Of a DNA stretch of 64,000 nt, positions 11,301 through 64,000 are shown piece by piece. The stretch is from Rhabdaerophilum sp. (GTDB lineage: Bacteria; Pseudomonadota; Alphaproteobacteria; Rhizobiales; Beijerinckiaceae). Position numbers and translations under genes: made by a program. The stretch covers positions 19,920-83,919 of the forward strand of contig JBOFZC010000030.1 in assembly GCA_051654985.1 (NCBI GenBank), read 5' to 3'. The notes under the pieces were generated by a model. That model had not been told where the DNA came from. It ran no database searches and saw only the letters and a program-made list of their open reading frames with translations. Every line of letters begins with the position of its first letter. The stretch's first letter is position 1.

Positions 11301-11536
11301 ACGCCAGGAAGTCCGTTCATCTGGGTTTCGAGGGGAAAAGTGACCAATTGCTCGACCTCGGGCGGGGCGAGCCCTTCCGCCTCCGTCATGATCGTCACGG
11401 TCGGACGGTTGAGGTCCGGAAAGACGTCGACCGGCAATTTCGTGACGGTGAAGGTACCGTAGAGGACCAGCACCGCAGCGAAGGCCAGAACGAAGAGCCG
11501 GTTACGAAGCGACTGCGTGACAAGGAAGTTGAACAT
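8387..11536 (-). CDS. CusA/CzcA-family heavy-metal RND efflux permease
   Basis: 1049 aa. [41 protein letters not shown], 12-TM RND layout. Confidence 0.95.
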
Positions 11537-11546
11537 CGCCTGCGCC

Positions 11547-13223
11547 TCAACGGATCTGGTTCAGGAGTTCAGCGCCCTGCGTCACGATGCGCTTTCCGGC
11601 ATCGATTCCGGAAACAATCAGCACCTGATTGCCGTCGAGCGGTTCGACCCGCACTTCGCGCGGCAGGAAGCGCTCGGCGTTGGTATGTTCATAGACGATG
11701 GATTGGCCATTAGGACCGCGCAGGACGCTGGTCCGAGGAACGGCGATACCCTTGCGCTCATCACTGGTGGAAGCGAGCACGGTGAGTAGCTGGCCCGCCC
11801 GAAGGCCACGCGATTCCCCTTCTACACTGAACTGGATCGGAATGGCCTGATTGCGGTCGGCCAGTCCCGAACCGCGATAGGAGAGCGGCACCGTCCGTCC
11901 GTCACCGAAACGCCCATTGGCTGAGCCATTGATGGCATGCGCCTCGAAACTTAGCGCTTCCACCCAGAAGCGCGAGGGATCGACGATCTGGAAGATGATC
12001 GCGTTCGGCTCCGCGATTTGACCTGCGATTGCCTGAACCGCGGCGATTACGCCCGAAACCGGGGCGACGAGCTTTTCGGGCTCGCGCGGAGCACGTTCGA
12101 GATTGCCACGCCTCGCGCGCAGACCTTGCAGTTCCAGCTCTGCATCTTCGATCTGAGACCGAGCGACCACGTTCTGAATTTGCCGAAACCGTTCCAGTCG
12201 CCGCTCGGCGATCGCGATCTGCTGGTCTAGTTCTCGTGACTGTTGCTGTTGGCTGGTAACGTCGGCGGCCCCGATCGCGGGTTGGACGAGGGCAAGAACG
12301 TCTCCGGCCGTGACGCGTGTTCCCAATCGCGGAAAACCGCCGGGTGGTGGGGCAAGCCGCCCGGCCACCGATGCCTGGACATAGCCCGCTGCACTCGGAT
12401 CCGAGATGACGCGGGCGGGAAGCTCCACAGTTCCCGAGAAAGTTCGAGACTCGGTGAACAGCGTCCGGATGCCGAGAATACGCTGCGTCGTCTTCGGAAC
12501 AAAGATCGCTCCGTCGGCAAATCGCTGCGCCACATCTCGCTCTGCGATCGCGGAAGCTGGAGCCGAAGGACTGGCGGCGTCAGATGGCGCGGTGTTGAGC
12601 ACGAGCAGTGTCGCAAGTATGGCAATGGAGGCCGTGCGCGCCCTTCGGCGAAATAGTCCGGAAACAATGAGGCCGACCAGGAAAGCGCCACCGCCAACCA
12701 CCCACAGGCCTGCATCTCTCGTCGCGAGCCGCGACTGAATGTCCTGCGCCCAGGCTGCGCCGATGACCGCGTTCCAAAGACTGGTTGTTCCAACGGGCGG
12801 CGCGGCCGGCTCAGGAATGGTGAGTGTGGCTGTCAGAATATCGATCGTCCCCTTGGCCTGAACAGTAAATGCAAGGTCGTAACCGCCGGGCCGCGCCAGC
12901 CACGGCGCGTCGATCGTGTAGGCGCCGTCTGGTGTTGCCGATACCTTGACGGTGCCGCCGGGACCATCGACTTCGATGTCCGCATCGTTGACAGGCTCGT
13001 TGCCCCGAAATGTATCGATGTAAATTCTCAGTTTCCCGCTTCGCGCGATTGCTACAAGTTCGAAATCCGCGGACGATGCATCTGCTCGTGGCGCAATCGT
13101 CAAGGATACCGGCGGTGGCGGTGCACCGTGATCATGCCCCTCGTGAGCGGTGGCAAGCGAGGCTCCGACGAGCGCAGCCAGTACCGTAAGAACCCGGCAA
13201 TAAATTGAAAACTTGGAGGTCAT
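11547..13223 (-). CDS. RND periplasmic adaptor with N-terminal His-rich extension
   Basis: AHEGHDHG after a signal peptide, internal TM segment, then a membrane-fusion domain ([11 protein letters not shown]...APVSGVI...[10 protein letters not shown]). Start inferred at 13223, not the longer ORF start. Confidence 0.88.
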
Positions 13224-13280
13224 TTCGGCCCTGTCGACAGATTGCGTCAGTTTGATCTTACTGATCGCTCTCTCCGAAAA

Positions 13281-13307
13281 CATTTCGGCTTTGTAACAGT
13301 TTGTTTC
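13281..13307 (-). promoter_or_regulatory. Tripartite direct-repeat box, copy 2
   Basis: Minus strand GAAACA-N4-GTTACA-N5-GAAATG, 58 bp upstream of the adaptor ATG. Confidence 0.65.
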
Positions 13308-14670
13308 AGGGAACTGATCGTTGCTTCGGCAAAGCGATGGAAACGATAAGGCCGCCTTCGGCATGGTTCGTGAACGATAGGCTCCCACCGTGCCCCTCAA
13401 TGATCGCCTGCGCAATGGTGAGGCCCAGTCCGAAGCCGCCGGTCTCCTGATTGCGCGACGGTTCGAGGCGCACGAAAGGTGACAGCGCGCGCTCAACATC
13501 ATCGGGCGCGATTCCTGGCCCGTGATCCCGAATGCTCACGATGGTGGAGCTGGGATTATCCTCGACGATCACCTGCGCTTGGCGACCATACTTGACCGCA
13601 TTGTCGATCAGATTGCCAAACGCCCGTTTCAATGCGAGCCGTCTGCCAGGAATTCTCGCATTGCCGATGCCCTCGAGCGAAACCGCAAGCCCACGATCGG
13701 AAGCATCATCCGTGATCGTTTTGAGGACCGCGACGATATCAATTGGCTTGATCTCCTCATCAGTCCGATCGCCGCGCAGATAGGCGAGCGTCTGATCCAG
13801 CATTCGTTCCATCTCATCGAGATCAGCCGCAATGGCAGTCCGCGTATCCAGCTCTGCCATGTCTTCGATCCTGAACCGAAGCCGTGTGATCGGTGTCTTC
13901 AGATCATGCGAGACCGCCGCCAGCGCCTGAGTGCGATCATCGATCAAGCGGCCAATCCGTCGCTGCATATCATTGAATGCGACCGCGAGAGCGCGAACCT
14001 CACGTGGCCCGATTTCCGGTACGAGGAATGCCTTCTTGTTCTTATAAAGCTCCTTAGAGGCCTTTACGAAGCCTGTTAGCGGCCGGGTGAGCCAACCGAC
14101 CAGAAGGACCGATACAATGATCGCCCCCAGCGCCATCAATGTTGTCGACAGAAGCGTTCCGTGACCGGCGGAGACGCGCGGGTTCCATGCAACGAGGCTG
14201 ACATTGATCCAAGATTGGTCGGGCAGACGGATGGAGATCAGAGCAAGGTGCGGGTCGTCGACAACACGTCGGTTTGCACCGATCACAAGGCCGTCGTCGG
14301 CGATTTCGGGGGCGATGTCCCGCAGACGTCGGCCTAACGCTTCCCACTCGCCAGCACCAGGCCCTCCTGCGAATGCATGTTCTGTCCGGCTCCAGTGTGC
14401 CTCAATAGGCCCACCAGACATATCATGGGCGAGTGTCTCGCGTTCCTGTTCCGGAACCCGCATCACCGACCGTTTAATCGCGATAAGCTGGTCAGCCAAC
14501 CTTGTTTCATTCGCCAAACTAAGTTCACGTGTCAGGCTATGCTGGTAGGTCCAAAGGCTTGCGATATGCACGAGGCCAATTCCGATCAGCACGACGAGCG
14601 TTGTCCGTAGGGCAAGGCTATCGATGCGCCGCAAAAAAGCGGTGATTGCGTTTAGCTGTCTTTCACCCAC
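13306..14670 (-). CDS. Sensor histidine kinase (EnvZ-like, HAMP-HisKA-HATPase)
   Basis: AVSHDLKTPITRL, NLIDNAVKYG, DHGPGI, GGFGLGL. GTG start overlapping the regulator stop (inferred). Confidence 0.93.
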   Translation of the reverse strand: MGERQLNAITAFLRRIDSLALRTTLVVLIGIGLVHIASLWTYQHSLTRELSLANETRLADQLIAIKRSVMRVPEQERETLAHDMSGGPIEAHWSRTEHAFAGGPGAGEWEALGRRLRDIAPEIADDGLVIGANRRVVDDPHLALISIRLPDQSWINVSLVAWNPRVSAGHGTLLSTTLMALGAIIVSVLLVGWLTRPLTGFVKASKELYKNKKAFLVPEIGPREVRALAVAFNDMQRRIGRLIDDRTQALAAVSHDLKTPITRLRFRIEDMAELDTRTAIAADLDEMERMLDQTLAYLRGDRTDEEIKPIDIVAVLKTITDDASDRGLAVSLEGIGNARIPGRRLALKRAFGNLIDNAVKYGRQAQVIVEDNPSSTIVSIRDHGPGIAPDDVERALSPFVRLEPSRNQETGGFGLGLTIAQAIIEGHGGSLSFTNHAEGGLIVSIALPKQRSVP

Positions 14671-15421
14671 GGATGACGTCCGCCGCGAAGAGATAACCGA
14701 CACCTCGCACTGTCTTGATGAGATCGTCGACGCCGTCGAGCTTGCGACGGAGACGGCTGATTTGCACATCAATGGAGCGGTCGAATACGTCAATCGATCG
14801 ATTCCGCGCCGCATCAAGGAGAAACTCCCGCGTAAGGACCCGTTGAGGTGCCTCCAGAAACGCGAGCAAGAGGTCATATTCGCCGGTCGACAAATCAACC
14901 ACAACGCCGCGCGGATCCATCAGTTCACGCTTGAGGGTATCGAGGCGCCAGCCAGTGAATTGAATGACCCGACCGCCTCGTTCGCCGGTTTGCTGATCCT
15001 GGGACCGAACGCGCCTTAACACAGCGTTGATCCGGGCGAGCAACTCCCGGGGATTGAAGGGCTTCGCGAGATAATCGTCCGCGCCTACTTCAAGCCCAAT
15101 GATGCGATCTGTCTCCTCACCCTTGGCCGTCAGCATGATAACGGGAATCATCGATGTACGACGCAAATCGCGGCATAGATCAAGGCCGCTCCGCCCAGGT
15201 AACATCAGATCCAACACGATCAGGTCGATTGCAGCGTGTTTAAGGGCTTCGTTCATTTCTGCGCCGCTACGCGCGGTATGAACCCGAAATCCGTTAGCGC
15301 GAAGAAATTTGGCGACGAGAGAAAGGATTTCGCCGTCATCATCGACGACAAGAACTTCGAATGACGATGGCAATGGGCCCTTGATGGGCTGCGCTTCTTG
15401 AGCGAGATCACGACTCATCAT
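14663..15421 (-). CDS. OmpR-family response regulator
   Basis: VLVVDDD, LIVLDLMLPG, MLTAKG, DDYLAKPF, winged-helix DRSIDVQISRLRRK...TVRGVGY. Confidence 0.95.
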   Translation of the reverse strand: MMSRDLAQEAQPIKGPLPSSFEVLVVDDDGEILSLVAKFLRANGFRVHTARSGAEMNEALKHAAIDLIVLDLMLPGRSGLDLCRDLRRTSMIPVIMLTAKGEETDRIIGLEVGADDYLAKPFNPRELLARINAVLRRVRSQDQQTGERGGRVIQFTGWRLDTLKRELMDPRGVVVDLSTGEYDLLLAFLEAPQRVLTREFLLDAARNRSIDVFDRSIDVQISRLRRKLDGVDDLIKTVRGVGYLFAADVIRG

Positions 15422-52085: not shown

Positions 52086-52547
52086 ATGTCCCGCGCCACC
52101 ACCGCACACCGTGCTCCGCCGCCCAACCAGGCTGAAATTACGCTTGCCCGCTCCTCGGCTCAGCGCCTGGGTTCGCTTGTCCGCAGAAGCGAGCCCTTGC
52201 GTGTCCGTGTGATTGATCGCGGACAGGAGGCGCCGATCGAGCTTCCTGCCGTCGCCGTCGACCTCTTGCTGGATATCCTTGGCGCGATGGCTGCCGGCCA
52301 AGGCGTGACCATCATCCCTGAGAATGCCGAACTCACGACCGTGCAGGCTGCCGGGGTTCTCAATGTCTCGCGACCGTTTTTGATCAAGCTCCTTGAGGAT
52401 AATGCCATTCCGCACCGGAAAGTCGGGAAGCACCGCCGGGTCAGAATGGAAGACGTCATGGCTTATAAGGCGCGGATCGACCGTGACCGGGAAGCCGTGC
52501 TCGACGCTCTTGTCGCCGACGCTCAGGAGCAGGGCATGGGATACTGA
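52086..52547 (+). CDS. Excisionase-type (HTH_17) DNA-binding protein
   Basis: IELP..AVDLL..IL.AMAAGQGV, LTTVQAAGVLNVSRPFLIKLL...VGKHRRV. Confidence 0.92.
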   Translation: MSRATTAHRAPPPNQAEITLARSSAQRLGSLVRRSEPLRVRVIDRGQEAPIELPAVAVDLLLDILGAMAAGQGVTIIPENAELTTVQAAGVLNVSRPFLIKLLEDNAIPHRKVGKHRRVRMEDVMAYKARIDRDREAVLDALVADAQEQGMGY

Positions 52548-52553
52548 GCGGGG

Positions 52554-53123
52554 ATGACCTACACCGCGCTCCTCGACGCCAATGTGCTCTATCCCGCTGT
52601 CACGCGGGATATTCTCATGCGCCTTGCTGTCACCGACATCTACAAGGCGCGCTGGAGTAACGACATTCACCGGGAATGGATCGAAAATCTCATCGATAAT
52701 GAGCCAAAACGCGAGCGCGCCAAACTGGAGCGCACGCGTGAACTCATGGACCTCAATGTCCGGGATGCGCTGGTTACAGGATACGAGCCGCTCATTCCTG
52801 GGATTGTCGGCTTGCCCGACCCGGATGATCGGCATGTCCTTGCGGCCGCAATCGTCGGCCGCTGCGATGTGATCGTGACCGCGAACTTGCGAGATTTCCC
52901 GGAGGCAGCGATCGCACCTTATGGGATCGAGGCGATCCACCCCGATGAGTTCCTGGGCTCCCATCTCAGTCTTGCCCCGGGTCTCTTCTGTGGCTGCGTG
53001 AAGCGCATTCGGGCTCAGCTCAAGAACCCTCCCATGAGCGTCGAGGACTATCTCGGAAAGCTGGTCGCATGTGGATTGGTCGCGACCGCAAAGGCGCTCG
53101 AGCAATATGCCGAATTAATCTGA
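52554..53123 (+). CDS. PIN-domain protein
   Basis: LLDANVLYP, WSNDIHREW, LPDPDDRHVLAAA, IVTANLRDFP. Confidence 0.92.
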   Translation: MTYTALLDANVLYPAVTRDILMRLAVTDIYKARWSNDIHREWIENLIDNEPKRERAKLERTRELMDLNVRDALVTGYEPLIPGIVGLPDPDDRHVLAAAIVGRCDVIVTANLRDFPEAAIAPYGIEAIHPDEFLGSHLSLAPGLFCGCVKRIRAQLKNPPMSVEDYLGKLVACGLVATAKALEQYAELI

Positions 53124-53155: not shown

Positions 53156-53560
53156 CTAGTCCCGGCGGCGCGTCTTTGCCGATTGCCCCGTGGATTTCTT
53201 TTTGAACTCGACGCGCTGGCTTTCGAGTTGCGCGAGCGCCTCGACGCGTGCCCGACTGGAAGCCTTGATGGCCTCGAGATCAATGTCCCTGGCATCCAGC
53301 GCTTTCTTCACAACGCCATCGTTGAGCCCGAGGAGTTCCCAGACCGAAAGGCCAAGTCCCTTGGCAATGAGTTCGAGGGTATCGAGCGTCGGGTTGGCGT
53401 CGCCCTTGACGAGGAGGTAGTAGGTCCCCGGTGAAATCCCGACCTTCGCCAGAAAGCTTGCCAGATCCTCGTGGTCAGCCGCAAGCTGTTCGAGCCTGAT
53501 GCCGAGTACCGATGCCAATGTCTTTTCCGCGGTTCTGCCGCGCCCCGCTTTGGGAGCCAT
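53156..53560 (-). CDS. XRE-family HTH regulator
   Basis: FLAKVGISPGTYYLLVKGDANPTLDTLELIAKGLGL. Confidence 0.8.
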   Translation of the reverse strand: MAPKAGRGRTAEKTLASVLGIRLEQLAADHEDLASFLAKVGISPGTYYLLVKGDANPTLDTLELIAKGLGLSVWELLGLNDGVVKKALDARDIDLEAIKASSRARVEALAQLESQRVEFKKKSTGQSAKTRRRD

Positions 53561-53694
53561 CTGCCTGCCCGATCCATGATCCAATGATTGGCTGCAGCGT
53601 GCATACATTTTCTACGATACGCAATAGATCGCACAACCAGAGACCTTCCGCTGGATGACTGTTCCCATTGGGTCGGGTGGAAGGGAATTCCGTT

Positions 53695-54125: not shown

Positions 54126-54173
54126 GACGGTTTGAGAGGGGAAGAGAGAGGTTCTGCCCCGACCGTCGTGGAG
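54126..54173 (+). promoter_or_regulatory. Purine-rich hairpin leader of the ParB-like gene
   Basis: GACGGT(54126-31)/ACCGTC(54162-67) outer stem, GGGG/CCCC inner stem, GGAG RBS immediately 3'. Confidence 0.5.
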
Positions 54174-54182
54174 ATGACGGAC

Positions 54183-56324
54183 ATGACCCAGACGGATTCC
54201 AGCACTGTTACTCACCGGCCCATAGTTGGTGCCCTCGCCGCCCCTCGCGAGGTTCCCCTTTCCCAGCTCGTCTCTTCTGCTGCCAATGTCCGGAAGGTTC
54301 GAGCCTTCATGAGCATTGACGATCTCGCGGAGGACATCGCGCGTCGGGGGCTCCTGCAGTCGCTCTCTGTCCGTCCCGTGATAAATGATGCTGGCGTCGA
54401 GACGGGGCAGTTCGCTGTTCAAGCCGGAGGGCGACGCCTCGCCGCCCTTCAGAAGCTTCAAGCAGAAGGCCGCATCAGCCCTGATCATCCGATCCCCTGC
54501 CTCGTCAAATCCACCGGCATCGAGGTCGAGGATTCGCTTGCTGAGAATGTGATGCGCTCCGGTCTTCATCCGCTCGACCAGTTCCGGGCCTTCAAGGCTC
54601 TGGCCGACGATGAAGGGCTCTCGGTCGATGAGATCGCGGCACGGTTTTTCGTCTCGCCGCAGGTCGTTCGCCAACGCCTGAAGCTCGCCTCTGCAAGCCT
54701 GACCCTGCTTGCGGCCTATGCCGAGGACGAGATGACGCTCGATCAACTCATGGCGTTCTGCGTGACGGCGGAGCATGCCCGCCAGGAAGGGGTCTGGGAG
54801 CAGATCCGGCATGGCTACAACAAGGAGCCCTACCTGATCCGGCGCCTTCTCATGGAAGGTGCGGTCAAGGGCAATGATCGGCGCGTCCTTTTCGTGGGAG
54901 CTGCCTCCTACGAAGCCGCTGGCGGTGTGATCCTGCGCGATCTCTTCTCGGAGGATGGCGGGGGCTGGTTTCAGGCTGGTGCGCTGCTCGACCGTCTCGC
55001 CATGGAGAAGCTGGCCGAGGAAGCCAAGGGCATCGCCACCGAGGGCTGGAAATGGGTCAAAACGGCCCTCACCTTCCCCTATGGCCATCTCAACGGCCTG
55101 ACACGGCTCTCATCGACACCGGTGCCGGTCTCGGCTGATGAGCATGCGCGTTATGACGCCACCCTTGCCGAGTACAATGCGCTGTCAGAGGAATTCGAGG
55201 GCGTCGAGGAACTTCCCGAGGAGATCGACCAGCGCATGGGCGAGCTCGAAGACATCCTCGCGAGGGTCGATGAACGCCCCGAGATCTTCAATCCAGAGGA
55301 AATCGCCAATGCCGGGGTTTTCGTCAGCATCGAGCACGATGGTCGTCTGCGCGTCGAAGCTGGCTATGTCTGCCCAGAAGATCGCGTTGCAATTGCACCT
55401 CGTCAGTCGTCGAGCAGTCCGACCACAGGCGATGATTCTGCTTTGTCCTGCCAGACTGGAGGCGTTGGACCGAAAACGTCAGAGGATGCCGATGACGTCG
55501 AAACGGAGACCACGGCCCGCCTCTCCGACCGCCTCGTCGCCGAACTCACGGCCTATCGGACGCTCGCCTTGCGGGAAGCCATGGCTGATGATCCCGATAC
55601 CGCGCTCCTCACCTTGACGCATGCCCTAGTGCTCAAGAGCTTCTACCGCTTCGCTGGTTCGGAGACCTGCCTCGAGCTCGATATCCGGTCCTCCTCGTTG
55701 GAGGCGTATGCACCTGACCTCGGCGAAAGCGATGTCGCCAATCGGATGAGCGCCCGCCAGGCGCGCTGGGCTGGGATGCTGCCGAAAAATCCCGGTGATC
55801 TCTGGGATGCGCTTGTCGCCTTTGATGCGGATTCGCTCGCAGCCCTCTTCGCGTGGTGCGTCTCGACAGGCGTCAATGCACTGCAACTCCCGCACATACG
55901 CCGCACCCGTGAACTCGATCATGCCGACCGGCTCGCGGATCATGTCGATCTCGATATGCGCCGCCATTGGTCTGCGACCTCGAAAAGCTTCTTCGGGAAG
56001 GTCACGAAATCCCAGATCCTCGTGACGGTGCGCGAGGTGAAGGGCGAGGCGGCAGCCCAAATGATCGATCACCTCAAGAAGTCTGACATGGCAACTGAGG
56101 CAGAGCGCCTTGTCGCCGGCGCAAACTGGTTGCCGGCTCCCTTGCGATCGATCCATGAGATGGGCTTGCACGCGCTTGTCGCCCCATCTGCAACGACGGT
56201 CGAAGCTCCCACACAGCCCGCGAGCGAAGGGAGTGAGGATGCCGATTCAGAGGCTGTTACGCTCCCAGCCTTCCTGACTGAGGGCCTGGCAACGGCGTCA
56301 ACTTATCCCATCGCCGCCGAATAG
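54183..56324 (+). CDS. Large ParB/Spo0J-like protein of conjugative elements
   Basis: NVRKV, IARRGLLQSL.V, AGGRRL.AL, SLAEN..R..LHPLDQF, HTH V.QRLKL, C-terminal LPAFL...IAAE. Confidence 0.92.
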   Translation: MTQTDSSTVTHRPIVGALAAPREVPLSQLVSSAANVRKVRAFMSIDDLAEDIARRGLLQSLSVRPVINDAGVETGQFAVQAGGRRLAALQKLQAEGRISPDHPIPCLVKSTGIEVEDSLAENVMRSGLHPLDQFRAFKALADDEGLSVDEIAARFFVSPQVVRQRLKLASASLTLLAAYAEDEMTLDQLMAFCVTAEHARQEGVWEQIRHGYNKEPYLIRRLLMEGAVKGNDRRVLFVGAASYEAAGGVILRDLFSEDGGGWFQAGALLDRLAMEKLAEEAKGIATEGWKWVKTALTFPYGHLNGLTRLSSTPVPVSADEHARYDATLAEYNALSEEFEGVEELPEEIDQRMGELEDILARVDERPEIFNPEEIANAGVFVSIEHDGRLRVEAGYVCPEDRVAIAPRQSSSSPTTGDDSALSCQTGGVGPKTSEDADDVETETTARLSDRLVAELTAYRTLALREAMADDPDTALLTLTHALVLKSFYRFAGSETCLELDIRSSSLEAYAPDLGESDVANRMSARQARWAGMLPKNPGDLWDALVAFDADSLAALFAWCVSTGVNALQLPHIRRTRELDHADRLADHVDLDMRRHWSATSKSFFGKVTKSQILVTVREVKGEAAAQMIDHLKKSDMATEAERLVAGANWLPAPLRSIHEMGLHALVAPSATTVEAPTQPASEGSEDADSEAVTLPAFLTEGLATASTYPIAAE

Positions 56325-57202: not shown

Positions 57203-57897
57203 GGCAGGCCATCAGAACCGGGGGCAAAAGGCGCAAAGATTGCAACTTGGGCTAGTCGGCTTCGCGCCCCCAATGCGGTCACTGAGGGGAAGCTTCAGTT
57301 AACCCGGAAGCGGCCGATCGGAGCGGCTTGTTTGGCACCAGTTACAGCGATGCCTGCAACTCAGTCAGTTTGATCATCAGCGTTCGCGGCTGGGCGGGCG
57401 CAGCTTCCAGCCCTACCGCTCGACAATATGCTGCTGCCTCGTTGGAAATGGCGTGAATGAGCAGACATCGAATGCTGATGGTGTCCGCTGCGATCTTGAG
57501 GTGTGGCGTGGTCACTCTACCACTGGAGAGGCGGCTACTCACGTTCCCGGTTGTCCACTTACCCACAGCAAGCCTTGGCGGATAAGGTGGGACCGCCACA
57601 GGGTTTGGCCTCATTCTGAGTTTCAAGCGGCGTACCACTCGCCGGGCGGGCAGACAGTTAAACCTGAACCCTGACGTTGATGAGATCGGGCGTGATGGGC
57701 CCGAAAGAGCTGCATCGGACGCACGCTGCCGTTGACTTCCAAAGTCGACTTTGCCGCCTGCTTGAGTATTTCACGTTCAGAGACTTTCCGCACGATCGCG
57801 GCGAGCTTGCCCGAGCGCACGTGCTGTGGGGAGCTTGTCAGTCCGCCGAACCACAAAGGCCACTGCCGTAATTTGCAGAAAAAACTCTTGTCTATGA

Positions 57898-57950
57898 ATT
57901 GTCAGAAAAAACATTAGAGATATTGACATTGTCAGTTTTTGTCTCCATGT
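57898..57950 (+). promoter_or_regulatory. AT-rich promoter with TGACA/TGTCA repeats
   Basis: TTGACA at 57922-27 inside the palindrome TGACA-T-TGTCA. ATTGTCAG occurs twice. Confidence 0.55.
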
Positions 57951-57970
57951 TTTGACGCATGGAGGGTGCC

Positions 57971-58549
57971 ATGACCGATGGTCCGTTCAAAAATTTAAAA
58001 CTCGGGAACTGCTGGAAGCGGTTGGTCGACGCCGTGCAAAACGACGCGGCATCGTCCGAGGAATGTCGCGCCGTCGCGTCAGATGCGCTAGCCCGCCACC
58101 TCGTTACGAAAGAGCATATCAAGGCAATTAACGAGCTCGACGCACATCTTAGTAAGGGTCAGCTAGAGCTCGATCCGGTGGGGTCGATCGACGCCATCTT
58201 CGACCGCTGCGGGAAGACGCCGTTCCTCGACGCGCTTCAGAAAGAACTGGCGTATCGGACGGCCAATGACACGCCGCTCAGCGATGCCGTTGCACCCGCG
58301 CTCGACGCCGCCATCGCTTTGCAGATCGGCGAAACGCAGAGCCGGTTCCATGAGGAATGCATCCGCGCATACGAAGACGGTGAGATCAGCCGGAGTGCAT
58401 CAGACAACGCGCGTAGAAAAGTGGATGTCGCCTTCGACGCCCTAGACTACGGGAAGGTCCGCACCGCACTGATTGAAGGTCGAAAGGACGCCTTCGAGAG
58501 CGACTTCGGCAAGAGCGACGGTGTCGATGATGGGATGGTCCGATTGTGA
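57971..58549 (+). CDS. Unknown helical protein (N-terminus MTDGP)
   Basis: GGAGG RBS before ATG at 57971. Stop overlaps the next GTG (GTGA). Acidic DxxDDG C-terminus. Confidence 0.85.
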   Translation: MTDGPFKNLKLGNCWKRLVDAVQNDAASSEECRAVASDALARHLVTKEHIKAINELDAHLSKGQLELDPVGSIDAIFDRCGKTPFLDALQKELAYRTANDTPLSDAVAPALDAAIALQIGETQSRFHEECIRAYEDGEISRSASDNARRKVDVAFDALDYGKVRTALIEGRKDAFESDFGKSDGVDDGMVRL

Positions 58550-59937
58550 ATACCCAAGTGACTAGTCCCGAGCACTATGGCCTGAGATTGTGCGTCGTCG
58601 AGGCAGGACGACGGCAGGTGCGATCCCAGCATCGATCAACGATCATCGCTGAAATCGGCCGGGAGATCACCTTTGTCCCGGATGCGCTGGATACCTACAC
58701 CTATGACGGATGGAAACCGATCCACCACGATCTTCTGGTCATAAGCGCAGCGGTTGAATATTCGGATCGCCGCACGGCAAGGCGGATCAGCCAGTGGGCG
58801 CGCGATTTTGACATCACGGTGCCCGTTGTCGAATGGGCTACGTGGCAACAACCCGAGGTGCAGGCGAGCCTTCGTGCTGCGTTGCGGCATCTGACCGGCG
58901 ACGAGTGGCACTTCACCTTTGTTCCCTGGCAGGGAGCAAGCGTTCTCGGCGCGCGGCAGCGGTTGCTCCCGTTTGGGACGGAAAAAAGCTTCGTCATCGC
59001 CTACAGCGACGGACTGGATTCGCGCTGTGTCTCCAAGGTGTCTGGGATAGGGCGCGATGCCGTTTGCGTCCGCGTTACCAAACATCGTCATGCCCATAAG
59101 GCGGGTGATGAGCCGTTCGACCAGATCCCCTTCCGTGTCGATGTCCCCTCCGCCCGGGAAAGCAGTGTGCGATCGCGCGGATTCAAGTTTGCCGCCGTGA
59201 CGGCTATTGCCGCGCATCTAACGGGACTGACTAGAATTGTCGTTCCTGAGAGCGGTCAGGGTGCACTGGGTCCGGTGCTACTGCCCTTGCACAACGTCTA
59301 TGCCGACTATCGCAATCATCCGACCTTTTTTCGCAAAATGGAGCGGTTCATCAGGGCGTTGCTCGGCCATCAAGTCCGCTATGAGCAACCGCGCCTCTGG
59401 AACACGAAAGGCGAGACGATTTCTGCCTTTCGGCTTGCAACGAATAAGGCAGTCGAGGAACTCTTCGATACTCGCTCGTGCTGGCAGCAGCGCTGGAACG
59501 CGAAGGTGGACGGCAAGCTGCGGCAGTGCGGCCTTTGCGCCGCTTGTCTGCTTCGCCGGATGAGTATGCACGCGGCAAGGATAGACGAGCCGAAAGACAC
59601 CTATGTCATCGCCGATCTGACGGTTCCGTCGTTTCAGGATGCGCTGCCGGGCAGGAAAAAGGTCCGACTCAGCCGGTCGATGGCCGAGTATGGCAGCGTC
59701 GGCGCGCGGCACCTCCAGCAATTGGCTGACTTGGCGGACCGGTCCGACGGAGATCTGAAGGTTCACGCATTCGAGATCGCGCGCGCGATGGGGGAGCCAC
59801 CGGACGACGTGTTGAAGAAACTCAGGACCATGTTGCTGACGCACGCGAAGGAATGGCGCGGCTTCATGGCCGCTCAAGGAGAAAAAAGCTTCCTCAGAAG
59901 CTGGACGAAGGGAGGGCGTCATGGCCGATCTGAATGA
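58546..59937 (+). CDS. QueC-like (QatC-type) PP-loop enzyme
   Basis: N-terminal DLL...AVEYSDR..W.RDF.ITVPV...LTGDEWHFTF domain, YSDGLDS PP-loop, RSRGF, PESG, TKGE, TRSCW, CGLCAACLLRR zinc site. Confidence 0.88.
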   Translation: MNTQVTSPEHYGLRLCVVEAGRRQVRSQHRSTIIAEIGREITFVPDALDTYTYDGWKPIHHDLLVISAAVEYSDRRTARRISQWARDFDITVPVVEWATWQQPEVQASLRAALRHLTGDEWHFTFVPWQGASVLGARQRLLPFGTEKSFVIAYSDGLDSRCVSKVSGIGRDAVCVRVTKHRHAHKAGDEPFDQIPFRVDVPSARESSVRSRGFKFAAVTAIAAHLTGLTRIVVPESGQGALGPVLLPLHNVYADYRNHPTFFRKMERFIRALLGHQVRYEQPRLWNTKGETISAFRLATNKAVEELFDTRSCWQQRWNAKVDGKLRQCGLCAACLLRRMSMHAARIDEPKDTYVIADLTVPSFQDALPGRKKVRLSRSMAEYGSVGARHLQQLADLADRSDGDLKVHAFEIARAMGEPPDDVLKKLRTMLLTHAKEWRGFMAAQGEKSFLRSWTKGGRHGRSE

Positions 59938-61111
59938 GTTGAGCGCACAGGAAATAGGTCGGCGCCTGCGTCTGGCTCGAGAGAATGCGGGCATTCGCCA
60001 GGATGAGGCGGCCGACGTAATTGGCATGTCACGCCCGACACTGGTCTCCATCGAAAAGGGCACGCGGCGCGTTCGCATACAGGAGCTACAATTACTAGCG
60101 CGGCACTACGGGGTCTCCGTCAACGCGCTTCTGCGTCGAGAAGCCGTTCATACCGATCTGGTGCCGCGGTTTCGCAAGATGCGGGAGACGGAAGACGACC
60201 ATACGCTGGAAGCCATCGAGCTTCTCAATGACCTGGTGAAGGCTGAAGTGGAACTCGAAAACGTCCTCGGCGTCGAGCGGAGGCGCCACTATCCGCCCGA
60301 GAAAGGGATCAACGACGGCGACGCTATAGAGCTAGCAGAGAAGCATGCGCAGGAGCTGCGTGATTGGCTCGGCCTGGGTGGAGGGCCGATTGCCGACATC
60401 TTTGCCGTCATCGAACTCGATCTCGGCGTTCGCCTGTACCAGCGACGCCTGTCCTCGACGTCAAAAGTCGCAGGCTTGTTCGCGTATGACGAGGTCGTCG
60501 GCGCATGCATTCTTCTCAACGCGAATCATCCGCTGGAACGGCGCATCCAGTCTGCTGCCCATGAAATCGGGCATTTCGTCGGAACGCGCCGAGTGCCCGA
60601 AGTTCTGGAAGATGACGAGCAGTTCTTCTCGCGGGACGAGCGGTATGCGAATGCTTTCGGCCGCGCCTTCGTGACGCCTCGAAAGAGCTTCTCGGAGTGC
60701 TTCAAACAGCTGACGGCTGGCGCGGACATGCTTACCCGTCGGCATGTCATTCTGCTGGCCCACCAGTACAACATCTCCCGCGAGGCATGCGTCCGTCGAC
60801 TCGAAGAGCTGGAGCTTTTAAAGAAGGGCACGTGGGAATGGCTCAAGACGAAGGGCGGGATCAAGGACCATCACGCGCGTGAAGTACTAGGAGACGCCGC
60901 CGTTCGTCTCGACATGGCCAAGACAGATGCCAACCGACCAATCTCCCACAGAATGAGCCTCATGGCGCATGCGGCGTGGAAGCGTAGCATCATGTCGGAA
61001 GGGCAGCTGGCGGAGCTACTGAGGATGCGGCGCGTTGAGGTGCGCGAGCTGATCGACCAGATCGAGCTTGAGGAAAACGTGACGGATGACCTTCTCAAGC
61101 TCCCTGGCTGA
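59921..61111 (+). CDS. XRE-HTH fused to ImmA/IrrE Zn metallopeptidase
   Basis: IGRRLRLARE...QDEAA...RPTLVSIEKG HTH, AAHEIGH (HExxH), ERYANAF. Start overlaps the QueC-like gene. Confidence 0.93.
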   Translation: MADLNELSAQEIGRRLRLARENAGIRQDEAADVIGMSRPTLVSIEKGTRRVRIQELQLLARHYGVSVNALLRREAVHTDLVPRFRKMRETEDDHTLEAIELLNDLVKAEVELENVLGVERRRHYPPEKGINDGDAIELAEKHAQELRDWLGLGGGPIADIFAVIELDLGVRLYQRRLSSTSKVAGLFAYDEVVGACILLNANHPLERRIQSAAHEIGHFVGTRRVPEVLEDDEQFFSRDERYANAFGRAFVTPRKSFSECFKQLTAGADMLTRRHVILLAHQYNISREACVRRLEELELLKKGTWEWLKTKGGIKDHHAREVLGDAAVRLDMAKTDANRPISHRMSLMAHAAWKRSIMSEGQLAELLRMRRVEVRELIDQIELEENVTDDLLKLPG

Positions 61112-61748
61112 TGACCACAGGCCGCTGGTACTCGACACGAGCGTTCTGGTGAACCTGCACGCCTGCACATACGGTGAGCGGGTGCTGTCGGCAATTCAAA
61201 ATGAAATCGTAGTTGCTGACATCGTCGCCGGCGAATTGGAGCACGAGACGAGCCGGAGGAACGGGGAACTCAGCTTCCTCCATGACATGATTAGACGCGG
61301 CAAGGTCACCATCATCGGCATGACCGAAGCGGAGGGCAACCTGTTTGCGAGGCTTTCCGGTGGCCCCTCCTCTCTGGATGACGGCGAAGCGGCCACGGTT
61401 GCCATCGCCACCCATCGCGGCTTCCGCACCGTCATCGATGAACGAAAGGGCCGCGCCCGCGCCGTGGCGATGATGAACGGCGACGCGCCCGCCTGGTCCC
61501 TTGATCTGCTACGACACATCAGCGTCATAAAGAGCCTCGGCGAGAAACTGGCCGCAGACGTCGTCTATCTGGCACTTCGATACGGGCGGATGCGCATCCC
61601 ATCGGAGTGCGGCGATGATGTCGTGGCTCTGATCGGACGCGACCGCGCCCTTGAATGCACCTGCCTGCCGAACTTCAAAAGCCTGTTGCAGGAGGCGCGG
61701 TCGAGCAATGAAATGGAAGCGGCACCGAGTTCTCGGAATCGGCGATAA
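61086..61748 (+). CDS. PIN-domain nuclease
   Basis: LVLDTSVLVNL, V..EL, LDDGEAATVAIA, IDERKGR, SLDLL. Start overlaps the peptidase gene. Confidence 0.88.
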   Translation: MTFSSSLADDHRPLVLDTSVLVNLHACTYGERVLSAIQNEIVVADIVAGELEHETSRRNGELSFLHDMIRRGKVTIIGMTEAEGNLFARLSGGPSSLDDGEAATVAIATHRGFRTVIDERKGRARAVAMMNGDAPAWSLDLLRHISVIKSLGEKLAADVVYLALRYGRMRIPSECGDDVVALIGRDRALECTCLPNFKSLLQEARSSNEMEAAPSSRNRR

Positions 61749-61821
61749 GACGCCGATCAATCCACATAATGAAAGACGAAGTTCGCCATATTGTGGCAAC
61801 ATTTAGTTGTGGAGGCACAAA

Positions 61822-63555
61822 TTGACTCGTATACGCGCGGTTGAGATCAAGCACTTCAGAGGGATAAAGGATCTCGTCTGGTATCCATCTCCCGGCATTA
61901 ACTGCTTGATAGGTCCTGGCGACAGTGGGAAATCATCAATTCTCGATGCCATCGACTTCTGTTTGGGTGCGCGTCGAAACATCCAGTTCACTGACGCGGA
62001 CTTCCATCAGCTACACGTAGAGACGCCGGTCACGATCACAGTGACGCTGGGCGAACTTGAGGATGGACTCAAGAACATCGACACCTACGGAATGTTCGTC
62101 CGTGGTTTCGACCCAGCGACCAAGAAAATCGAGGATGAACCAGAGAAAGACGCCGAAACGGTCTTAAGCCTGCGGCTGACGGTCGCCAGCGATCTAGAGC
62201 CGAGCTGGACGCTGGTGTCGGAGAGGGCGGAAGCGCAAGGCCTTGGCCGAAATCTCAGTTGGGGAGACCGCATCAGGCTGGCGCCGACGAGGATCGGTGC
62301 GCTGGCCGATTACCATTTAGGTTGGCGGCGCGGCTCGGTTCTGAACCGTGTATCGGAAGAGCGTGCGGATACTTCGGCCGCACTTGCGAAGGCAGCAAGG
62401 GATGCCCGGGCGGCCTTCGGCGAAGAGGCCCAAGGGCAACTTGGTGATACGCTGATGATCGTAGCGGCAACCGCCAAGGAACTAGGCATCCCGATAGGTG
62501 AGAATATCAAAGCGATGCTGGACACCCACTCCGTATCGTTCAGCGGCGGGACGATTTCGCTGCATGATGAGGGGGGTATACCGCTTAGGGGATTGGGCAT
62601 CGGGTCTACCCGACTGCTGATCGCTGGGCTTCAGCGAAAGGCGGCCTCTCAGTCGACAGTGATCCTTATCGACGAGCTGGAACATGGGCTCGAACCGCAC
62701 CGCATTATCCGCCTTCTAGGGTCACTCGGTGCCAAGGAAAAGACGCCGCCACTCCAAGTTTTCATGACGACACACTCACCCGTCGCGTTGCGCGAGCTCT
62801 CCGGCAGCCAGTTGTTCGTGGCACGACGGTCTGGTGACCGCCAAGACGTATTGAGCGTCGGCACCGCCGACGGTGTCCAGAGCACGATCCGGCTCTATCC
62901 AGATGCTTTCCTCGCGCCTTCGGTGATCGTCTGCGAAGGCGCAAGCGAGGTCGGTCTTGTGCGAGGGCTGGATCAATACAGGACAGCGCAAGGTAAGGAA
63001 GCCATCACAGCGCGGGGAGTCGCGTTAGTCGATTGCGGTGGCGGCGATTCTGACCGGCCTTTCGAAAGAGGAGGAGCTTTCCAAGGCCTTGGATACAAGG
63101 TTGCCGTCGTTCGCGACGATGACAAGAAGCCGACACCTGATATTGAAAGCAAATTTATCGCCGAAGGCGGCGAAGTAATTGCTTGGCGTGACGGCCGCGC
63201 ATTGGAAGACGAGCTCTTCTTAAGCCTGTCTGAAGATGGGGTCAGAAAACTTGTGGCTCGTGCGATCGATCTTCATGGCCACGATCTGGTGAACGAGCAC
63301 ATCAAATCAGCCAGCAAGAATGCAAAGGACCTTGGGGCGATCCTGACCGAGACAGAAGCAGGAGAAGTCACCACGGAAAGTAGAGCGGCGCTTGGCACAG
63401 CGGCGCGCACAAAACGCGCCGGGTGGTTCAAGTCGGTCACTTGGATGGAGGACGTGGCGCGAGACATTATTGGCCCGGACTTGCCAAAAGCGGATGCCAG
63501 CTTCCGCGACCTTGTTGAGAGCATCTTCGCGTGGAGCGCTAATGCCGATGCCTGA
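61822..63555 (+). CDS. OLD-family ATPase-TOPRIM nuclease (GajA-like)
   Basis: IKHFRGI, GPGDSGKS, GLGIGS, IDELEHGLEPH, TTHSP, VCEGASE, RDDD. GGAGG RBS before TTG at 61822. Confidence 0.92.
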   Translation: MTRIRAVEIKHFRGIKDLVWYPSPGINCLIGPGDSGKSSILDAIDFCLGARRNIQFTDADFHQLHVETPVTITVTLGELEDGLKNIDTYGMFVRGFDPATKKIEDEPEKDAETVLSLRLTVASDLEPSWTLVSERAEAQGLGRNLSWGDRIRLAPTRIGALADYHLGWRRGSVLNRVSEERADTSAALAKAARDARAAFGEEAQGQLGDTLMIVAATAKELGIPIGENIKAMLDTHSVSFSGGTISLHDEGGIPLRGLGIGSTRLLIAGLQRKAASQSTVILIDELEHGLEPHRIIRLLGSLGAKEKTPPLQVFMTTHSPVALRELSGSQLFVARRSGDRQDVLSVGTADGVQSTIRLYPDAFLAPSVIVCEGASEVGLVRGLDQYRTAQGKEAITARGVALVDCGGGDSDRPFERGGAFQGLGYKVAVVRDDDKKPTPDIESKFIAEGGEVIAWRDGRALEDELFLSLSEDGVRKLVARAIDLHGHDLVNEHIKSASKNAKDLGAILTETEAGEVTTESRAALGTAARTKRAGWFKSVTWMEDVARDIIGPDLPKADASFRDLVESIFAWSANADA

Positions 63556-64000
63556 GATCGACTTGCTCGCGGTCGACCGGGGGACAGTGACAGCGCCGGC
63601 CGGGTGCGGCAAGACACACATGATCGCTGAGGCACTGACGCGGCACAGCGGTGACAAACCCATCCTCGTTTTGACTCACACCAATGCTGGCGTCGTCGCC
63701 TTGAGAGGCCGCCTCGACAAAGCGGGCGTACCGTCGCAGGCATATCGGCTCTTGACGATCGACGGCTGGGCAATGCGGCTCATCTCGACGTTCCCTAAAC
63801 GCAGCGGACACGATCCAAATCTTCTCAAGCTAGCCAGCCCGGGTACGGATTATCCGAACATCAGGGTTGCTGCCTCAAAGTTGTTGAAGGCAGGCCACGT
63901 CGCTGACGTGCTCAAGGCGAGCTATGCGCGGCTCATTGTTGACGAGTATCAGGACTGTTCGATCCGCCAACACGCTGTTGTCGGCTTTGCGGCACAAACG
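63548..64000 (+). CDS. UvrD-like helicase (GajB-like), runs off the window
   Basis: Manual translation: MPEIDLL...APAGCGKTH, LTHTNAG, TIDGW, IVDEYQDC. Start overlaps the OLD stop. Confidence 0.9.
   Translation, partial: MPEIDLLAVDRGTVTAPAGCGKTHMIAEALTRHSGDKPILVLTHTNAGVVALRGRLDKAGVPSQAYRLLTIDGWAMRLISTFPKRSGHDPNLLKLASPGTDYPNIRVAASKLLKAGHVADVLKASYARLIVDEYQDCSIRQHAVVGFAAQT

Follow-up and report, generated by a model that had tools for sequence, protein, structure and literature searches.

A four-gene cassette with a QatC-type enzyme and a non-QatB partner, probably related to the anti-phage system Qat and so far undescribed

Two described defence systems, QatABCD and type IV CBASS, employ proteins of the QueC family. 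In type IV CBASS, Cap9 adenylates a carboxylate and joins it to the alpha-amine of a Met-processed N-terminus, and the N-terminal tails of QatB and CdnD insert into the active sites of QatC and Cap9, respectively (PMC13376578, PMC13639016, 10.1101/2025.04.06.647259). Here, we describe a four-gene cassette in a stretch of 64,000 nucleotides (the window) from Rhabdaerophilum sp., contig JBOFZC010000030.1, which encodes a QatC-type enzyme together with an upstream partner protein that is not QatB, and which is probably a hitherto undescribed system akin to Qat, an anti-phage system. A preliminary description of this DNA, made from the letters alone, had presented enzyme and partner as a pair. Both genes are real and their coordinates within 57971-59937 were correctly given (partner 57971-58549, enzyme 58546-59937), but they represent only two of the four genes of an operon that is strictly conserved and has its own operator. 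The same description took deazaguanylation by QatC and Cap9 as established. This is solid for Cap9 and overstated for QatC: two groups observed no QatC activity with 7-carboxy-7-deazaguanine (CDG) and called the reaction unresolved (PMC13279940, PMC13376578), while one group detected an NDG-bearing peptide from the N-terminus of QatB by liquid chromatography with tandem mass spectrometry, the reaction itself not being reconstituted (PMC13639016).

The features of the cassette are as follows; the basis of each assignment is given in brackets.

57897..57965, + strand: promoter/operator region (direct reading and comparison of loci)
57971..58549, + strand: gene 1, partner protein of 192 aa, non-QatB (homologue alignment, AlphaFold2 model, fold and profile searches)
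58546..59937, + strand: gene 2, QatC-type PP-loop ATP pyrophosphatase of 463 aa (profiles, PDB sequence matches, Foldseek, motifs, hhalign)
59921..61111, + strand: gene 3, fused Xre-type helix-turn-helix (HTH) and M78 (ImmA/IrrE) zinc metallopeptidase of 396 aa (Pfam, PADLOC, conservation)
61086..61748, + strand: gene 4, PIN-like/DUF3368 protein of 220 aa, candidate nuclease effector (Pfam matches of homologues, PADLOC, acidic residues)

We read this arrangement as an autoregulated cassette whose enzyme would modify the N-terminus of the partner, related to QatABCD and distinct from it, and we hold this reading with a confidence about midway between belief and doubt. Taken alone, the proposal that the partner is the substrate of the enzyme is a little likelier than the model as a whole. 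Its most likely role is in defence against phages, with mobile elements as its carriers.

The four genes lie on the + strand with overlapping ends, in the order partner, enzyme, HTH-M78 protein and PIN/DUF3368 protein; the GTG start of the enzyme overlaps the stop codon of the partner in the sequence GTGA. When each species was represented by one genome, 223 genomes were found to encode a relative of the enzyme. For comparison of the surroundings we used 85 loci, namely the best 80 of the 223 species-representative genomes and five other loci. They are spread over Alpha-, Beta-, Gamma- and Deltaproteobacteria, Melainabacteria, Verrucomicrobia and Acidobacteria; some are located on plasmids. 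The collinear order with overlapping reading frames is intact in 83 of the 85 loci. In the loci of four distant homologues, the same four genes occur between differing flanks, and the layout is also present in clades whose enzyme is only 40% and 34% identical. Gene 3 is the best conserved of the four genes (median identity to the window 75%), the partner the fastest evolving (about 35% identity overall).

On the chromosome of Allorhizobium sp. Av2, two copies of the cassette were found (locus L030 at about 47-60 kb, locus L031 at 2.31-2.32 Mb) with identical gene coordinates and scores, which suggests a cassette riding on a duplicated mobile element.

One conserved promoter precedes all four genes, and it is located 5' of gene 1 only. 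In the window, two TGTCAG repeats at 57900-57905 and 57930-57935 are spaced by 30 bp. The second one abuts a perfect -35 box, TTGACA, at 57924-57929, and a Shine-Dalgarno sequence, GGAGG, at 57961-57965 ends 5 nt ahead of the ATG at 57971. Among 80 unique upstream regions, 68 carry at least two copies of TGTCAG, in 65 of these 68 at a spacing of exactly 30 bp, while the background rate of the hexamer is 0.34 per kb. The sequence TTGACnnTGTCAG is present in 70 of the 80 regions, and likewise in 70 the second repeat is fused to the -35 box as TTGACAnTGTCAG; this repeat lies about 41 nt ahead of the ATG. A simple sigma-70 promoter scan did not call the promoter of the window, because its -10 element is weak. 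The runs found to carry the sequence were metagenomic DNA runs only, with no RNA-seq run among them. Most simply, the TGTCAG element would be the operator bound by the HTH domain of gene 3, a prediction from the arrangement of the sites.

In 29 of the 80 upstream regions a third half-site, inverted and of the form (C/T)GACA, occurs at most 45 nt before the ATG; in loci L045, L063 and L083, for example, it stands just before the Shine-Dalgarno sequence. Together with the second TGTCAG it makes up an inverted repeat around the -10 region. In the window, this half-site is degenerate (TGACGC).

Gene 3 matches the Pfam families HTH_3 (4e-13) and Peptidase_M78 (6e-15), and among the PADLOC models RmrA (3e-22), capP (1.8e-12) and capH (2.6e-7). 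The HExxH motif reads HEIGH at 60560-60574, and 121 of the 396 positions are at least 97% conserved, H214, E215 and H218 included. By its sequence, gene 3 is thus a protein of RmrA and CapH/CapP type at the domain level. The likeness to RosmerTA, CapH/CapP and ImmR/ImmA extends from the Xre-type HTH and the M78 peptidase with its intact HExxH to the surroundings, namely an adjoining toxin-like gene and a conserved operator that overlaps the promoter. In contrast to these systems, the HTH-M78 protein of the cassette is one fused chain, is encoded by the third gene of its presumed target operon and is strictly linked to a QatC-type pair.

The assignment of gene 4 comes mainly from its homologues, which match DUF3368 (PF11848) and PIN (PF01850, 29.5 bits at a cut-off of 23.6); the copy in the window reaches 16.8 bits with PF01850, under the cut-off of 23.6. 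In PADLOC, gene 4 matches PDC-S70 (1.2e-8) and no RmrT toxin model. Conservation is 97% or more at each of the acidic residues D17, E50, D99, E101 and D118. UPF0175 proteins are antitoxins of DUF3368 toxins, and in two divergent members the C-terminal region of gene 3 shows a weak UPF0175-like match (E 0.007-0.018, under the cut-off). The two genes thereby resemble DUF3368/UPF0175 pairs, a DUF3368/PIN protein with acidic residues beside a weakly UPF0175-like C-terminus, with the difference that the putative antitoxin would form the C-terminal end of a regulator-protease of 396 aa and not a small free protein.

These data bear on the question whether the cassette is one system at all. Two independent modules might travel together, a self-sufficient QatBC-like pair and an unlinked Xre-M78/PIN toxin-antitoxin or regulator of Rosmer type; we consider this unlikely without dismissing it. 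HTH-M78 proteins partner many toxins and defence operons, the RmrA, capH and capP models all match gene 3, and QatB and QatC suffice against some phages (PMC13279940). The strictness of gene order and of overlapping starts and stops in 83 of 85 loci across phyla argues against such a loose association, as does the single conserved promoter and operator 5' of gene 1 only. The partner-enzyme pair alone occurs in no locus among the 85 compared, and the fact that gene 3 is the most conserved of the genes suggests constraint from several partners.

If the cassette acts as a unit, the partner deserves most attention. In the window its N-terminus reads MTDGPFKNLKL, as part of a tail some 12 residues long (MTDGPFKNLKLG). 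The start at 57971 is supported by 72 clusters of homologues, nearly all of which have a predicted length of 192 aa and begin with MTDGP. An alternative start, the in-frame ATG at 57959 (MEGAMTDGP), was rejected, this ATG being not conserved elsewhere and lying inside the conserved Shine-Dalgarno context. Across 83 loci from several phyla, the N-terminus follows the pattern M-[T/S/V]-D-G-P-F-[K/R]-N, with Thr in 63 loci, Ser in 19 and Val in one. In 38 diverse partner sequences D3, G4, P5, F6, N8 and L11 are invariant. In the divergent clades the tail reads MSDGPHKSLPL where the enzyme is 40% identical and (V/M)RDGIWKGLPL where it is 34% identical. The preliminary description had proposed an alignment of homologues as a check on the invariance of the extreme N-terminus, and the outcome is near-invariance. 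Within the first 12 codons synonymous positions vary, all four Gly and all four Pro codons as well as both Ser codon families being in use; selection therefore acts on the N-terminal peptide and not on the DNA. A nucleotide-level cause of the conservation was rejected on the same grounds. Thr and Ser at residue 2 are compatible with Met removal. That this residue is nearly always Thr or Ser, and not just any small residue, suggests that the hydroxyl may matter.

In the AlphaFold2 model of the partner (pLDDT 84.7), nine helices form a bundle; the N-terminal tail is unstructured and the C-terminal one disordered. The earlier claim that the partner is not QatB proved right in all tests used, by sequence, profile and fold. 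The partner matches nothing in Pfam, PADLOC or NCBIfam, and Pfam does include a QatB model (PF28083). A profile of the 38 homologues run against PDB sequences found no QatB. A Foldseek search of the PDB, the QatB-QatC complex included, returned nothing below E 0.29. We further built a QatB comparison family from the canonical qatABCD operon of an Acinetobacter towneri plasmid, in which M1, G2, T3 and S4 are invariant; hhalign of the partner family against this family gave a probability of 0.18%. The possibility that the partner is a diverged QatB was rejected by these profile, fold and hhalign comparisons. A hidden Markov model search of 1.84 billion representatives yielded 199 relatives of the partner, nearly all of about 190 aa, and among them neither a wider family nor fusions, and none of QatB size. 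A lookalike of a phage protein was also considered and rejected, as the fold search against BFVD gave no match.

In the C-terminal tail of the partner (58490-58549), the motif G-[L/V]-D-[E/D]-G-(P) is conserved in all loci and echoes the N-terminal D-G-P. Conceivable roles for it are those of a docking peptide, a pseudo-substrate or a site of proteolysis.

The partner may also be a scaffold or sensor, with an N-terminus that serves binding or regulation, while the enzyme would act on another target, be it the protein of gene 3 or gene 4, a nucleic acid or a small molecule. Modification of the partner is a proposal, and the resemblance of the C-terminal motif to the N-terminal D-G-P would suit such a role. 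We judge this improbable all the same: an unstructured, invariant N-terminus with a residue 2 compatible with Met removal is the mark of the QatB and CdnD substrates, and the translational coupling of partner and enzyme fits a substrate-enzyme pair.

Turning to the enzyme, the preliminary description had called it QatC-type with an N-terminal extension and a Zn site, and PDB alignments, fold search and the Cys4 motif bear this out. It matches the NCBIfam model of QatC (NF041925) with 117.7 bits (E 5.6e-34), not reaching the equivalog cut-off of 280, and the QatC model of PADLOC at 2.9e-31; among the enzyme models of both collections, only those of QatC match. The QueC family of Pfam (PF06508) gives 20.5 bits, under the gathering threshold of 22. 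Strong sequence matches in the PDB are solved QatC chains only, and the HMMER alignment to QatC begins at about residue 60, in the QatC-type N-terminal extension. The AlphaFold2 model (pLDDT 76) aligns over its full length to the QatC chains 9y01_B (E 8.9e-13, TM-scores 0.62/0.66) and 9y02_B, altogether at E of about 1e-12 and TM-scores of 0.62-0.67, whereas QueC (2pg3) and Cap9 (9nto) are far weaker fold matches (E 0.1 for 9nto_B). QatC-like N- and C-terminal extensions, a QueC core and the Cys4 site occur together, as in the QatC fold. From the list of QatC-specific motifs in PMC13329287, D-x4-R...W-x-R, DxWxxxF, RxRxxxF, ExG, HP, P-x4-TK and the Cys4 site are readable in the enzyme. The latter has the form C312-x15-C328-G-x-C331-x2-C334-LLRR at 59479-59559, with the cysteines in 59479-59550.

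Two sites set the clade apart. At 59002-59022 the PP-loop reads YSDGLDS, so that SDGLDS, as the preliminary description had pointed out, takes the place of SGGLDS, and the first Gly is replaced clade-wide. Among the 120 closest homologues 84 have SDGLDS, the others E or N and rarely S or R, and none has SGG. In the 85 loci the second position is D in 49, E in 19, N in 15, S in one and T in one, and never G, which gives the clade pattern S[D/E/N]G[L/I/V]DS. Invariant in the clade are the phosphate-binding residues S154, D158 and S159, the adenine-binding R211 and F215, as well as G156 and the Cys4 site. The substitution is therefore clade-defining and constrained, and does not look like decay. 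A further site is the substrate loop, LSTRTTHP in canonical QatC, which reads YADYRNHP at 59299-59322. The Y-x-D motif of QueC and Cap9 recognises the 7-deazaguanine base. HMMER (against 2pg3), MAFFT and hhalign (91.8% probability) align Y252-A-D254-Y-R256-N of the enzyme to Y-P-D-C-R-D of QueC, so the clade appears to carry a QueC/Cap9-like Y-x-D-x-R motif where canonical QatC has none. D254 and R256 align at T278 and T280, which are invariant in the substrate loop of QatC (PMC13279940).

No relative of the enzyme was found on the viral contigs of IMG/VR, and carriage by phages is thus not supported.

How the cassette relates to canonical Qat, whose qatABCD layout was seen for comparison in locus L087, can now be put together. 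Both have a QueC-family PP-loop enzyme with QatC-specific extensions, most QatC motifs and the Cys4 site; translational coupling ties it to an all-helical partner encoded upstream, whose N-terminus is invariant and unstructured and whose residue 2 is compatible with Met removal, and both occur on mobile elements and in defence islands. The partner of the cassette, however, has about 190 aa against about 250 for QatB, with a tail of 12 instead of 30-90 residues and the start M[T/S]DGPF instead of MGTS. The enzymes differ in the PP-loop (S[D/E/N]GxDS versus SGGxDS) and in the substrate loop (Y-x-D-x-R versus L-S-T-R-T), HTH-M78 and PIN/DUF3368 proteins replace the KAP NTPase QatA and the TatD nuclease QatD, and the cassette has a conserved operator of its own. 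It is therefore very improbable that we are dealing with an ordinary QatABCD member that has lost qatA and qatD and whose partner is QatB in a diverged form. QatC models are the only enzyme models that match, and only about one third of the QatC cluster in the QueC-family network adjoins qatA or qatD (PMC13329287), so that there is room for our clade inside the published cluster. Yet the enzyme reaches 117.7 bits where the cut-off is 280 and deviates in its PP-loop and at T278/T280, the partner has no homology to QatB in profile or fold and starts with M[T/S]DGPF where QatB has MGTS, and genes 3 and 4 are consistently found in place of QatA and QatD.

Pyrophosphate is bound by the backbone of the PP-loop, and the loss of the first Gly from its SGGxDS might further mean that the enzyme is a dead pseudo-enzyme that only binds its partner. 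This, too, we regard as highly improbable, since the replacement is almost wholly D, E or N, resembling functional selection, and since S154, G156, D158, S159, R211, F215 and the Cys4 site all remain invariant. A metabolic QueC making free ADG or preQ0, as the retained Y-x-D-x-R and zinc motifs and the GenBank and plasmid annotation would have it, is scarcely credible for an enzyme of twice the size of QueC with QatC extensions that shows no que linkage among the frames scanned, always sits in a mobile four-gene operon, scores 20.5 against 22 with Pfam QueC, reads V-R-S-R-G at the VPxRN position and finds no match for the N-terminal motif region of QueC (the hhalign and Pfam alignments cover the C-terminal half of the enzyme only), the more so as canonical QatC does not complement a queC deletion (PMC13329287). 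Set against the QueC motifs SGGxDS, YxQxHxxE, VPxRN and YPDC, the enzyme retains Y-x-D-x-R and the zinc motif only.

Genes for queuosine or dpd functions did not turn up in the scanned parts of the window: neither queD, queE, folE nor dpd was found among 30 large open reading frames (1-47.6 kb) and nine open reading frames (52-64 kb), a scan that left out small frames and larger ones at about 48-52 kb. The preliminary description had already listed this absence, and among the frames scanned it holds, but it has little meaning, because CDG would come from the queuosine pathway of the host.

With type IV CBASS the cassette shares the proposed reaction, in which a QueC-family enzyme adenylates a carboxylate and joins it to the alpha-amine that Met removal exposes at an N-terminus; sequence alignment further points to a putative Y-x-D nucleobase-recognition motif. 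Position 2 fits in as well. It had been argued that the Thr exposed after Met removal implies a different acceptor residue or chemistry. This is not forced: Ser occurs at position 2 of CD-NTases, which carry M(G/S)G(G/S)GG, and a Thr or Ser at this position needs no new chemistry because its alpha-amine can serve like that of Gly. Differences are evident in the size of the enzyme (463 aa versus about 185 aa for the minimal Cap9), in the CD-NTase substrate and the TGT-like reader Cap10 of CBASS, and in the N-terminal motif, which in the cassette is not Gly-rich and has an invariant Asp-Gly-Pro. None of the four cassette proteins matches CD-NTase, Cap9 or Cap10 in Pfam, PADLOC and NCBIfam. The cassette would work like Qat and type IV CBASS, yet by the tests of membership it belongs to neither.

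For the autoregulated cassette with a modified partner, we propose the following course of events. The HTH-M78 protein would bind both TGTCAG repeats and, much as CapH/CapP or ImmR/ImmA do, act as the repressor of the operon. The QatC-type enzyme would bind ATP and adenylate a carboxylate, probably CDG, because the clade retains the QueC/Cap9-type Y-x-D-x-R that was lost from canonical QatC. The 192-aa partner would dock on the enzyme, and after Met removal its tail Thr2-Asp3-Gly4-Pro5-Phe6 would enter the active site, where the alpha-amine of Thr/Ser2 may attack the acyl-adenylate to give an N-terminally modified partner; the expected mass shift is about +176 Da if the adduct is NDG-like. The Thr/Ser-Asp N-terminus might be read by D155, the clade-specific acidic or amide residue of the PP-loop, together with D254 and R256. 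Infection may be sensed by the body of the partner, which evolves fast, and the output would be the PIN nuclease, presumably held in check by the HTH-M78 protein until the latter is cleaved upon infection. The link from modification to nuclease is the weakest step of this model.

Several observations weigh against the proposed model and are gathered here. The change of G to D, E or N in the PP-loop could alter or abolish the use of ATP, and the loop is reported to be strictly SGGxDS across the described QueC-family clusters (PMC13329287), to which the clade would be an exception. The register of the Y-x-D alignment is two residues off the published structural equivalence with T278/T280 of QatC. 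Canonical QatC has resisted reconstitution in vitro and does not accept CDG (PMC13279940, PMC13376578, PMC13639016), and for this reason the analogy rests mostly on Cap9. On the side of the partner, the most divergent clade (locus L088) has R-D-G-I-W in place of T-D-G-P-F, and covariation between residue 2 (T/S) and the PP-loop residue (D/E/N) was looked for and none was found. The -10 element of the window is weak, and both the UPF0175-like match and the PIN match of the window are sub-threshold.

A bolder variant, which we regard as improbable, involves a distinct chemistry that needs the beta-hydroxyl of Thr/Ser2 and/or the carboxylate of the invariant Asp3, with the modified partner directly gating an M78 protease that frees the PIN protein. 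The nucleobase adduct might, for instance, be ester-linked or cyclised (oxazoline-type), or Asp3 itself might be activated. If true, this would tie protein-nucleobase conjugation to protease-controlled abortive infection.

Even the plainer model, an autoregulated cassette that modifies its partner at the N-terminus, would have consequences. The reaction of QatC is still unresolved after three structural studies, and a widespread sister clade could show what QatC-type enzymes do. This clade may be easier to reconstitute, given its QueC/Cap9-type motif and its short, invariant putative substrate tail. If the model is true, N-terminal protein-nucleobase conjugation would extend beyond Gly-first substrates. 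Moreover, the cassette offers a concrete candidate effector, the PIN nuclease, and a candidate regulator, the HTH-M78 protein with its defined operator, neither of which is offered by canonical Qat. Current defence-finder models miss the cassette. Our literature search found no paper describing this architecture (QueC with DUF3368, ImmA or PIN), and PF11848 and PF06114 are both absent from one supplementary file of the QueC-family network paper. Records in GenBank, PLSDB and JGI list the partner as a 'hypothetical protein' and give the enzymes of the clade the name 'Queuosine biosynthesis protein QueC' or '7-cyano-7-deazaguanine synthase'; '7-cyano-7-deazaguanine synthase' is probably a misnomer.

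The genomic surroundings are in line with a mobile defence context. Directly 3' of the cassette in the window lies Gabija, with GajA at 61807-63555 (PADLOC 1e-238) and a GajB-like UvrD helicase at about 63542-64000, which runs off the window end and whose N-terminus matches the GajB of locus L001. The window further encodes a type IV secretion system (VirB/Trb genes with a coupling protein, 36-48 kb), metal resistance at 6-35 kb (copper and heavy-metal genes, an RND pump, two P-type ATPases, a multicopper oxidase and SCO1) and a 730-aa ParB-like protein at 54132-56324. It looks like a conjugative element, either a plasmid or an integrative and conjugative element. In other loci, the cassette neighbours Gabija in L001 and L013, Kiwa together with HEPN and Fic genes in L002, Shedu in L088, Hachiman accompanied by a methyltransferase in L040, a Mokosh-like protein in L017 and PDC-S28 in L033; the neighbours in some further loci are unremarkable.

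Two minor observations concern neighbouring genes. In locus L004 (Geoalkalibacter), the region 10182-15126, located 3' of the cassette, comprises deoxynucleoside kinase-like and adenylosuccinate synthetase-like genes and, on the opposite strand, a gene with an RNase_H_2 domain; these downstream genes may be another nucleotide-based defence module. In the window, a putative toxin-antitoxin pair is located at 52086-53123, in which the gene of an HTH_17 protein (153 aa) comes first and overlaps that of a PIN_3 protein (189 aa), and near this pair an HTH_3 protein is encoded on the opposite strand at 53156-53608.

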